The notes beneath the pieces are model-generated. The model was not told the DNA's origin. It worked only from the letters and a program-made list of their open reading frames with translations, and did not search any database. Source: a virus (Duplodnaviria; Heunggongvirae; Uroviricota; Caudoviricetes). Taken from it: DNA of 40,283 nt. The stretch lies in the IMG/VR virus record IMGVR_UViG_2565956723_000004. The stretch is one strand, 5' to 3'. The position numbers were made by a program, and so were the translations under genes. Shown piece after piece: positions 38,522 through 39,531 of this stretch; position 1 is the stretch's first letter; each line of letters begins with the position of its first letter.

Positions 38522-39531
38522 ATGGCAATCAAAAAACTCGATGATGGTCGATATGAAGTGGACATCCGCCCTACTGGACGTAATGGAAAACGCATCCGTA
38601 GGAAGTTTGATAAGAAAAGCGAAGCTGTCGCTTTCGAGAAATACACGTTGTACAACCACCACAATAAAGAATGGCTATCAAAACCAACAGACAAGCGACG
38701 TCTGTCGGAGCTGACACAGATCTGGTGGGATTTAAAGGGTAAACACGAAGAGCATGGGAAATCTAATCTTGGAAAAATTGAAATCTTCACAAAAATAACG
38801 AATAACCCATGCGCATTTCAAATTACGAAATCGCTTATCAGCCAGTACTGCGCCACCCGAAGAAGTCAGGGTATTAAACCTTCGAGTATCAATCGTGATT
38901 TAACATGTATTAGCGGCATGTTTACAGCCCTGATTGAAGCGGAGTTATTCTTTGGTGAGCACCCTATCAGAGGGACAAAAAGGCTTAAGGAGGAAAAACC
39001 AGACACAGGCTATCTCACGCAGGAAGAAATTGCCTTACTGCTTGCTGCTCTTGACGGCGACAACAAAAAGATTGCGATTCTTTGCCTGAGTACTGGAGCA
39101 CGTTGGGGAGAAGCAGCTCGTTTGAAAGCAGAAAATATCATCCATAACCGCGTCACGTTTGTTAAAACGAAAACAAACCACGCACCGTCCCGATCTCAGA
39201 GGCTGTTGCCAAAATGATCGCGGATAACAAACGAGGTTTTTTATTCCCTGATGCTGATTACCCTCGCTTCAGACGAACAATGAAAGCAATAAAACCGGAT
39301 TTGCCAATGGGGCAAGCCACACATGCACTAAGGCACAGCTTTGCCACTCATTTCATGATTAATGGAGGAAGTATTATCACGCTACAACGGATACTAGGTC
39401 ACACGCGGATTGAGCAAACTATGGTTTACGCTCATTTTGCGCCAGAGTACCTTCAGGACGCCATTTCTCTTAATCCGCTAAGAGGTGGTACTGAGGCCGA
39501 GAGTGTCCACACAGTGTCCACAGTAGAGTAA
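38522..39531 (+). pseudogene. int: Integrase (tyrosine recombinase) with interrupted reading frame
   Basis: 231-codon ORF (38522-39217, MAIKKLDDGRYEVDIRPTGRNGKR...) and 105-codon ORF (39214-39531, carrying HALRHSF and LGHTRIEQTMVYAHF) are in different frames. The N-terminal frame ends ...VTFVKTKTN then nonsense; the C-terminal frame reads NKPRTVPISEAVAKMIADNKRGF upstream of its Met. Shift maps to the AAACAAACC tract near 39170-39180. Confidence 0.7.

Follow-up and report, generated by a model that had tools for sequence, protein, structure and literature searches.

Bacteriophage P2 is among the closest described relatives of the element studied here. In P2, the integrase (Int) and the immunity repressor C are expressed from the Pc promoter, and Cox serves as the directionality factor for excision (PMC3936717). 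P2 Int is a single chain of 337 residues (AAD03297), for which structures of residues 46–337 (PDB ID: 5C6K) and of the catalytic domain (residues 162–337, PDB ID: 5DOR) are available; its next relative among solved structures is the HP1 integrase (PDB ID: 1AIH). A broken form of the int gene is also already known, as it is recorded in RefSeq as a frameshifted pseudogene. The complete Escherichia coli genomes S88, MS7163, N53 and N62 each carry it under the PGAP/RefSeq label "phage integrase", pseudo, "frameshifted" (locus ECS88_RS12525 in S88). A literature search on this prophage yielded a single paper, which deals with another P2-like prophage (phi-b0847 of CFT073).

A P2-like prophage between trhP and yegR

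The DNA analysed (hereafter the window) is a stretch of 40,283 nucleotides in which two att cores bound 36.4 kb between the host genes trhP (yegQ) and yegR of an E. coli chromosome. The P2 genome, for comparison, measures 33.6 kb. The core at the ogr end (3209–3235, minus strand) adjoins trhP, and the one at the int end (39611–39637, minus strand, 0 chance matches expected) forms the prophage/host junction adjoining yegR; each is identical to the P2 core at 27 of 27 positions. Between them, 34 P2 proteins are matched collinearly at 83–100% identity, with full-length matches for Q, P, O, N, M, L, X, Y, K, R, S, V, W, J, I, G, FI, FII, E, T, U, D, ogr, B and A, which takes in all essential genes, while orf30, fun(Z), orf91, tin and old of P2 are absent or replaced. 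With P2 gene content and order lying between duplicated P2 att cores, the element is a P2-like (Peduovirus) prophage. Its tail-fibre gene H (15745–18480, minus strand) is open and divergent. It is a long variant, encoding 911 aa in related assemblies compared with 669 aa in P2, and it resembles P2 H only at its two ends, with 84% identity over the initial 207 residues and 52% over about 200 residues at the C-terminus, which suggests a different receptor specificity.

The order cox, C, int, att is the same as in P2. The cox gene (37717–37992, minus strand), coding for the excision directionality factor that is also the repressor of Pc, is intact and its product is 100% identical to P2 Cox; gene C (38107–38406, plus strand), the first gene of the Pc operon that includes int, is also intact, with 99% identity to the P2 repressor over 99 aa. 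The Pe/Pc region differs from P2 by four substitutions, none of which falls in the annotated O1 and O2 operators or in the –10 and –35 hexamers, and the original prediction of an intact C, cox and operators therefore holds. The Int P'-arm site and Cox-binding region (39497–39594, not assigned to a strand) show 100% identity to the reverse complement of P2 positions 24356–24500, the positions of the arm and Cox features having been transferred from the P2 record. On the ogr side, the P arm next to the att core is identical to that of P2. About seven bases differ from P2 at 3236–3250, between the att core and the P arm, where P2 has its IHF site.

A cryptic, grounded P2 remnant (ogrK, yegZ), which is without almost all phage genes, occupies the same trhP (yegQ)/yegR site in E. 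coli K-12. What the two elements share is a P2-type element fixed at this site, where for the window "fixed" stands for a probable loss of excision, and the ogr homologue of the window is itself named "ogrK" by RefSeq. The window element would however stand at the very start of such a path of decay, with one frameshift, one insertion sequence and full-length essential genes.

A missing AAAC unit splits int into two reading frames

The int pseudogene (P2-type tyrosine integrase) was located at 38522–39531 on the plus strand by a two-frame tblastn search with P2 Int (99–100% identity), and measures 1010 bp, compared with 1014 bp in P2. Residues 1–219 of the query align at 38522–39178 with 99.1% identity, and residues 219–337 at 39172–39528 with 100% identity in another frame. 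The 5' open reading frame (ORF) has 231 codons (38522–39217, plus strand) and encodes native residues 1–219 followed by 12 out-of-frame residues (HAPSRSQRLLPK). The 3' ORF has 105 codons (39214–39531, plus strand), lies in the –1 frame with respect to the 5' ORF, and corresponds to native residues 233–337, over which it is 100% identical to P2 Int. The two ORFs overlap in an ATGA (39214–39217, plus strand) that combines the stop codon of the 5' ORF with the start codon of the 3' ORF, the start Met being native Met233. This is the arrangement that had been predicted from the DNA alone, and the shift also lies where it had been placed, at a repeat tract near 39170–39180. The tract is (AAAC)2, at 39171–39178 on the plus strand, with C39179 directly 3' of the two units, and alignment with P2, RM10466 and S88 gives (AAAC)3 as its ancestral form. 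P2 (AF063097) and the intact E. coli prophage RM10466 read GA(AAAC)3C, whereas the window and S88 read GA(AAAC)2C; this single 4-bp gap, one AAAC unit, is the only difference in 144 alignment columns. The indel is thus not a multiple of three relative to intact orthologues and is followed by a stop 12 codons past the shift, as is characteristic of a frameshift pseudogene. A programmed ribosomal frameshift was considered for this site and rejected: it lacks a slippery heptamer, its homopolymers are at most 4 nt long, and 756 of 760 homologous records read the gene in one frame.

Position of the break within the integrase

In the window, the chain which is intact in P2 breaks off within the catalytic domain, past residue 219. 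The 5' ORF carries the N-terminal and core-binding domains of a P2-type Int (99% identity to P2 Int residues 1–219; Pfam Int_N, PF24624, at residues 57–156, E = 5e-25). The catalytic domain, in contrast, is not complete on either polypeptide. PF00589 matches the repaired protein at residues 164–308 (profile positions 2–169), but its match to the 5' ORF covers profile positions 2–65 only, with a score of 21.8 bits that is below the gathering cut-off of 27.1, and its match to the 3' ORF covers positions 127–169. Likewise, the catalytic series R...HxxR...H...Y is encoded in full by the DNA, but in separate reading frames. In full-length numbering, Arg194 (GARWGE) is on the 5' ORF, while H269xxR272 (HALRH), H295 (LGHT) and the nucleophile Tyr304 (MVYAHF) are on the 3' ORF, as had been anticipated for HxxR and Tyr, so that the truncated N-terminal product lacks them. 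The catalytic lysine is probably Lys217, upstream of the break, an assignment made by comparing the motif VKTKTNKPRTVPI with the hairpin motif of XerD and Cre. Neither ORF encodes native residues 220–232 (13 residues), since the last 12 codons of the 5' ORF are out of frame and the 3' ORF begins at Met233. The 5' product would keep the arm-binding and core-binding parts and can at most bind DNA, without the ability to cleave it.

Distribution of the two-unit allele

A 1301-bp query around int was found with 100% identity in S88, MS7163, N53 and N62, where the flanking genes and the insertion site are also the same as in the window; the other full-length matches were 4 bp longer, among the matches listed. 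A 71-bp probe across the tract matched 4 records exactly and 756 others with a 4-bp insertion. The reciprocal 75-bp probe with three units matched 687 records exactly and 69 with one substitution, and aligned to the same 4 with a gap. The int segment is thus present in 760 E. coli records, with three units in 756, two in 4, and no other length. A hypermutable tract or contingency locus was tried as an interpretation and rejected, given that one probe per allele returned only these 756 three-unit and 4 two-unit records.

The exact 231-aa truncated product was recovered from 236 blocks of the collection, on 137 contigs of independent projects (NCBI, ENA, JGI and Logan), and its carriers include KTE5, KTE7 and UMEA 3162-1. 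Together with the four complete genomes, these contigs show that the lesion is reproducible.

ISEc12 insertions in the window and in sister strains

An ISEc12 element (IS21 family, istA and istB, 2581 bp) is present at 10338–12918 on the minus strand, flanked by an 8-bp duplication (GCCGATCT). It interrupts a 125-codon non-essential hypothetical gene between FI and G, and a look-up of the 88-aa downstream remnant of this gene returned no match. The prophage had been described as otherwise complete, which is correct as regards the essential P2 genes, all of which are full-length, but overlooks this insertion.

Over 40 kb, the window and S88 differ only in the position of ISEc12 and in one SNP. 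The latter, at position 4994 inside the tail gene U, is a G in the window and a T in S88. In S88, MS7163, N53 and N62, ISEc12 splits the major capsid gene N and is flanked by the 5-bp duplication ACTGG, whereas in the window N is intact and the element, which sits in the accessory gene, is inverted relative to the S88 arrangement. A third arrangement, with the frameshift and with ISEc12 in the replication gene A, was found in GCA_964051155.1 and five similar places. There are therefore three independent ISEc12 insertions in one stranded prophage, in N, in A and in the accessory gene. The target duplications are of unequal length, with 8 bp in the window and 5 bp in gene N. In N62, the terminase gene P (L008 10187–11959) has an internal stop on top of the frameshift and the insertion in N.

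The ISEc12 junction of the window was found in none of 5426 complete genomes. Two records have it, GCA_000507665.1 (KI669363.1) and Logan SRR958439, both 100% identical to the window over 20 kb. An artificial rearrangement of the window had been considered, and was ruled out when the 31-aa junction product led to these two records; since they share the same junction, the window is natural. The relatives with an intact int are GCA_964041775.1 (99.9% identity) and an ENA assembly (99.2%), neither of which has an insertion sequence within the region compared. The former (OZ039196.1) has the 99.9% identity over 18 kb, and shares with the window the DUF7380 accessory gene and the integration beside yegR. 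It differs in its three AAAC units and its 337-aa Int, and the 18 kb compared contain no insertion sequence. The most parsimonious order of events is a frameshift followed by separate secondary lesions, by parsimony over a handful of assemblies.

Accessory genes

At the P2 orf30 position, between S and V, the window codes for a 359-aa RelA/SpoT-domain protein (PF04607; 21052–22131, plus strand), which matches the PADLOC defence candidate PDC-S33 (E = 1e-16) and which could be a CapRel-type toxic small alarmone synthetase. Between A and Q, where P2 has the accessory genes old and tin, the window codes for a 610-aa DUF7380 protein (31732–33564, minus strand) that strongly matches the PADLOC candidate PDC-S39 (E = 8e-85); 341 blocks of the collection contain the identical protein. 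The fun(Z) accessory position (13259–14792, minus strand) holds a small tyrosine recombinase (PF00589; an ORF of 228 aa, annotated as 194 aa) with an adjoining 280-aa DUF5677 protein, and the PADLOC search gave no match for either of these two.

Alternative explanations

The split of int could in principle be an artefact of sequencing or assembly at a short repeat, with an intact gene in reality, as the original prediction had allowed. Such errors commonly take the form of repeat indels, and the window matches an assembly at scaffold level (GCA_000507665.1). Because the identical allele occurs in four independent complete genomes from different projects and on 137 contigs, such an artefact is to all intents and purposes excluded; moreover, the tract comprises only two or three tetranucleotide units, its homopolymers do not exceed 4 nt, and the other 756 records, from all kinds of assemblies, read three units. 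A tract of AAAC units might also act as a reversible, phase-variable switch of prophage mobility, since a change in the number of tetranucleotide units is of the class used by contingency loci. This is highly improbable with a tract of two or three units, for which only two lengths exist in 760 records, the short one being confined to four near-identical genomes. The carriers examined all have two units with identical flanks, no revertant combining an intact int with one of the insertions of the lineage was seen, and the lack of length variation beyond one clone argues against a switch.

It is also conceivable that the split gene is still active, either by reinitiation at the ATGA and association of the fragments, or by occasional –1 frameshifting within 39166–39217. 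A two-piece or recoded Int of low activity would then be a natural "split" tyrosine recombinase, which throttles excision rather than abolishing it; we consider continued activity very unlikely, and such a throttle equally so. The C-terminal fragment might be translated from the ATGA stop/start overlap, which is preceded 11 nt upstream by a weak Shine–Dalgarno-like AGAGG (pairing energy of –5.8 kcal/mol, compared with –10.0 at the start of native int). From 39166 the –1 frame is open, with the native sequence from Lys220 onward, and the AAA lysyl codon right before the stop could, on a reading of the sequence, re-pair in that frame; in addition, fragment complementation is known for Cre. However, the 52-nt overlap with the open –1 frame contains no slippery heptamer of the form X_XXY_YYZ, and 756 of 760 homologues are a single ORF. 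Reconstitution of Int from two fragments is unlikely because the 13 native residues 220–232, which by motif comparison with XerD and HP1 follow the hairpin with the catalytic lysine, are on neither ORF, and because the fragments have no dimerisation aid. The insertions in essential genes of sister strains also suggest relaxed selection on phage function. A last question is whether the lock-in of the prophage was positively selected, as a domestication that would eliminate the risk of lytic loss and yet keep immunity and the candidate defence genes, or was a neutral accident hitch-hiking in a successful clone. The allele persists in a widely sampled pathogenic lineage, and the prophage carries the two proteins matching PDC-S33 and PDC-S39, which would fit selection. 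Convergent evidence is nevertheless missing, as the allele has a single origin, and the later insertions (in the accessory gene in the window, in N and A elsewhere) look like neutral decay; positive selection is therefore a possibility which we regard as rather doubtful.

Proposed history and consequences

The interpretation which we favour, with a probability of about 0.92, is that the int gene of a P2-like prophage lost one AAAC unit, leaving a recently immobilised prophage at the start of its decay. The "recently immobilised" reading of the original prediction thus stands as a real frameshift of int, with the loss of excision as its likely outcome. A 4-bp deletion removed one of three AAAC units in the int gene of the prophage between trhP (yegQ) and yegR. 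Loss of one short tandem-repeat unit is a classic outcome of slipped-strand mispairing, and replication slippage of this kind is the most likely cause, judging from the form of the mutation. Translation shifts after Asn219 and ends 12 codons later, giving a product that keeps the DNA-binding domains and Arg194 and lacks the HxxR, His and Tyr needed for cleavage. We infer from this a loss of recombinase activity and of excision. As P2 requires Int for excision and the catalytic domain is broken, the prophage is predicted to be unable to excise, and would no longer re-integrate by its own means. The repressor C, and hence immunity, and the accessory genes should still be expressed. Since the arm sites, the Cox sites and both att cores are preserved, Int provided in trans should rescue the prophage. 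Excision is a rare event even for intact P2 prophages, and the phenotype of the frameshift may therefore be subtle.

The frameshift arose once, in the lineage to which the neonatal-meningitis strain S88 belongs, and is inherited vertically; the independent ISEc12 insertions at three places within this lineage would have come later. The locus offers a clean and datable example of what would be the first step in the grounding of a prophage, and is otherwise of little significance. The two-unit allele and the alternative positions of ISEc12 are possible lineage markers within the S88-related clone, and the carriers may form a small natural series for following the decay of a stranded prophage while its immunity and defence-candidate genes persist.
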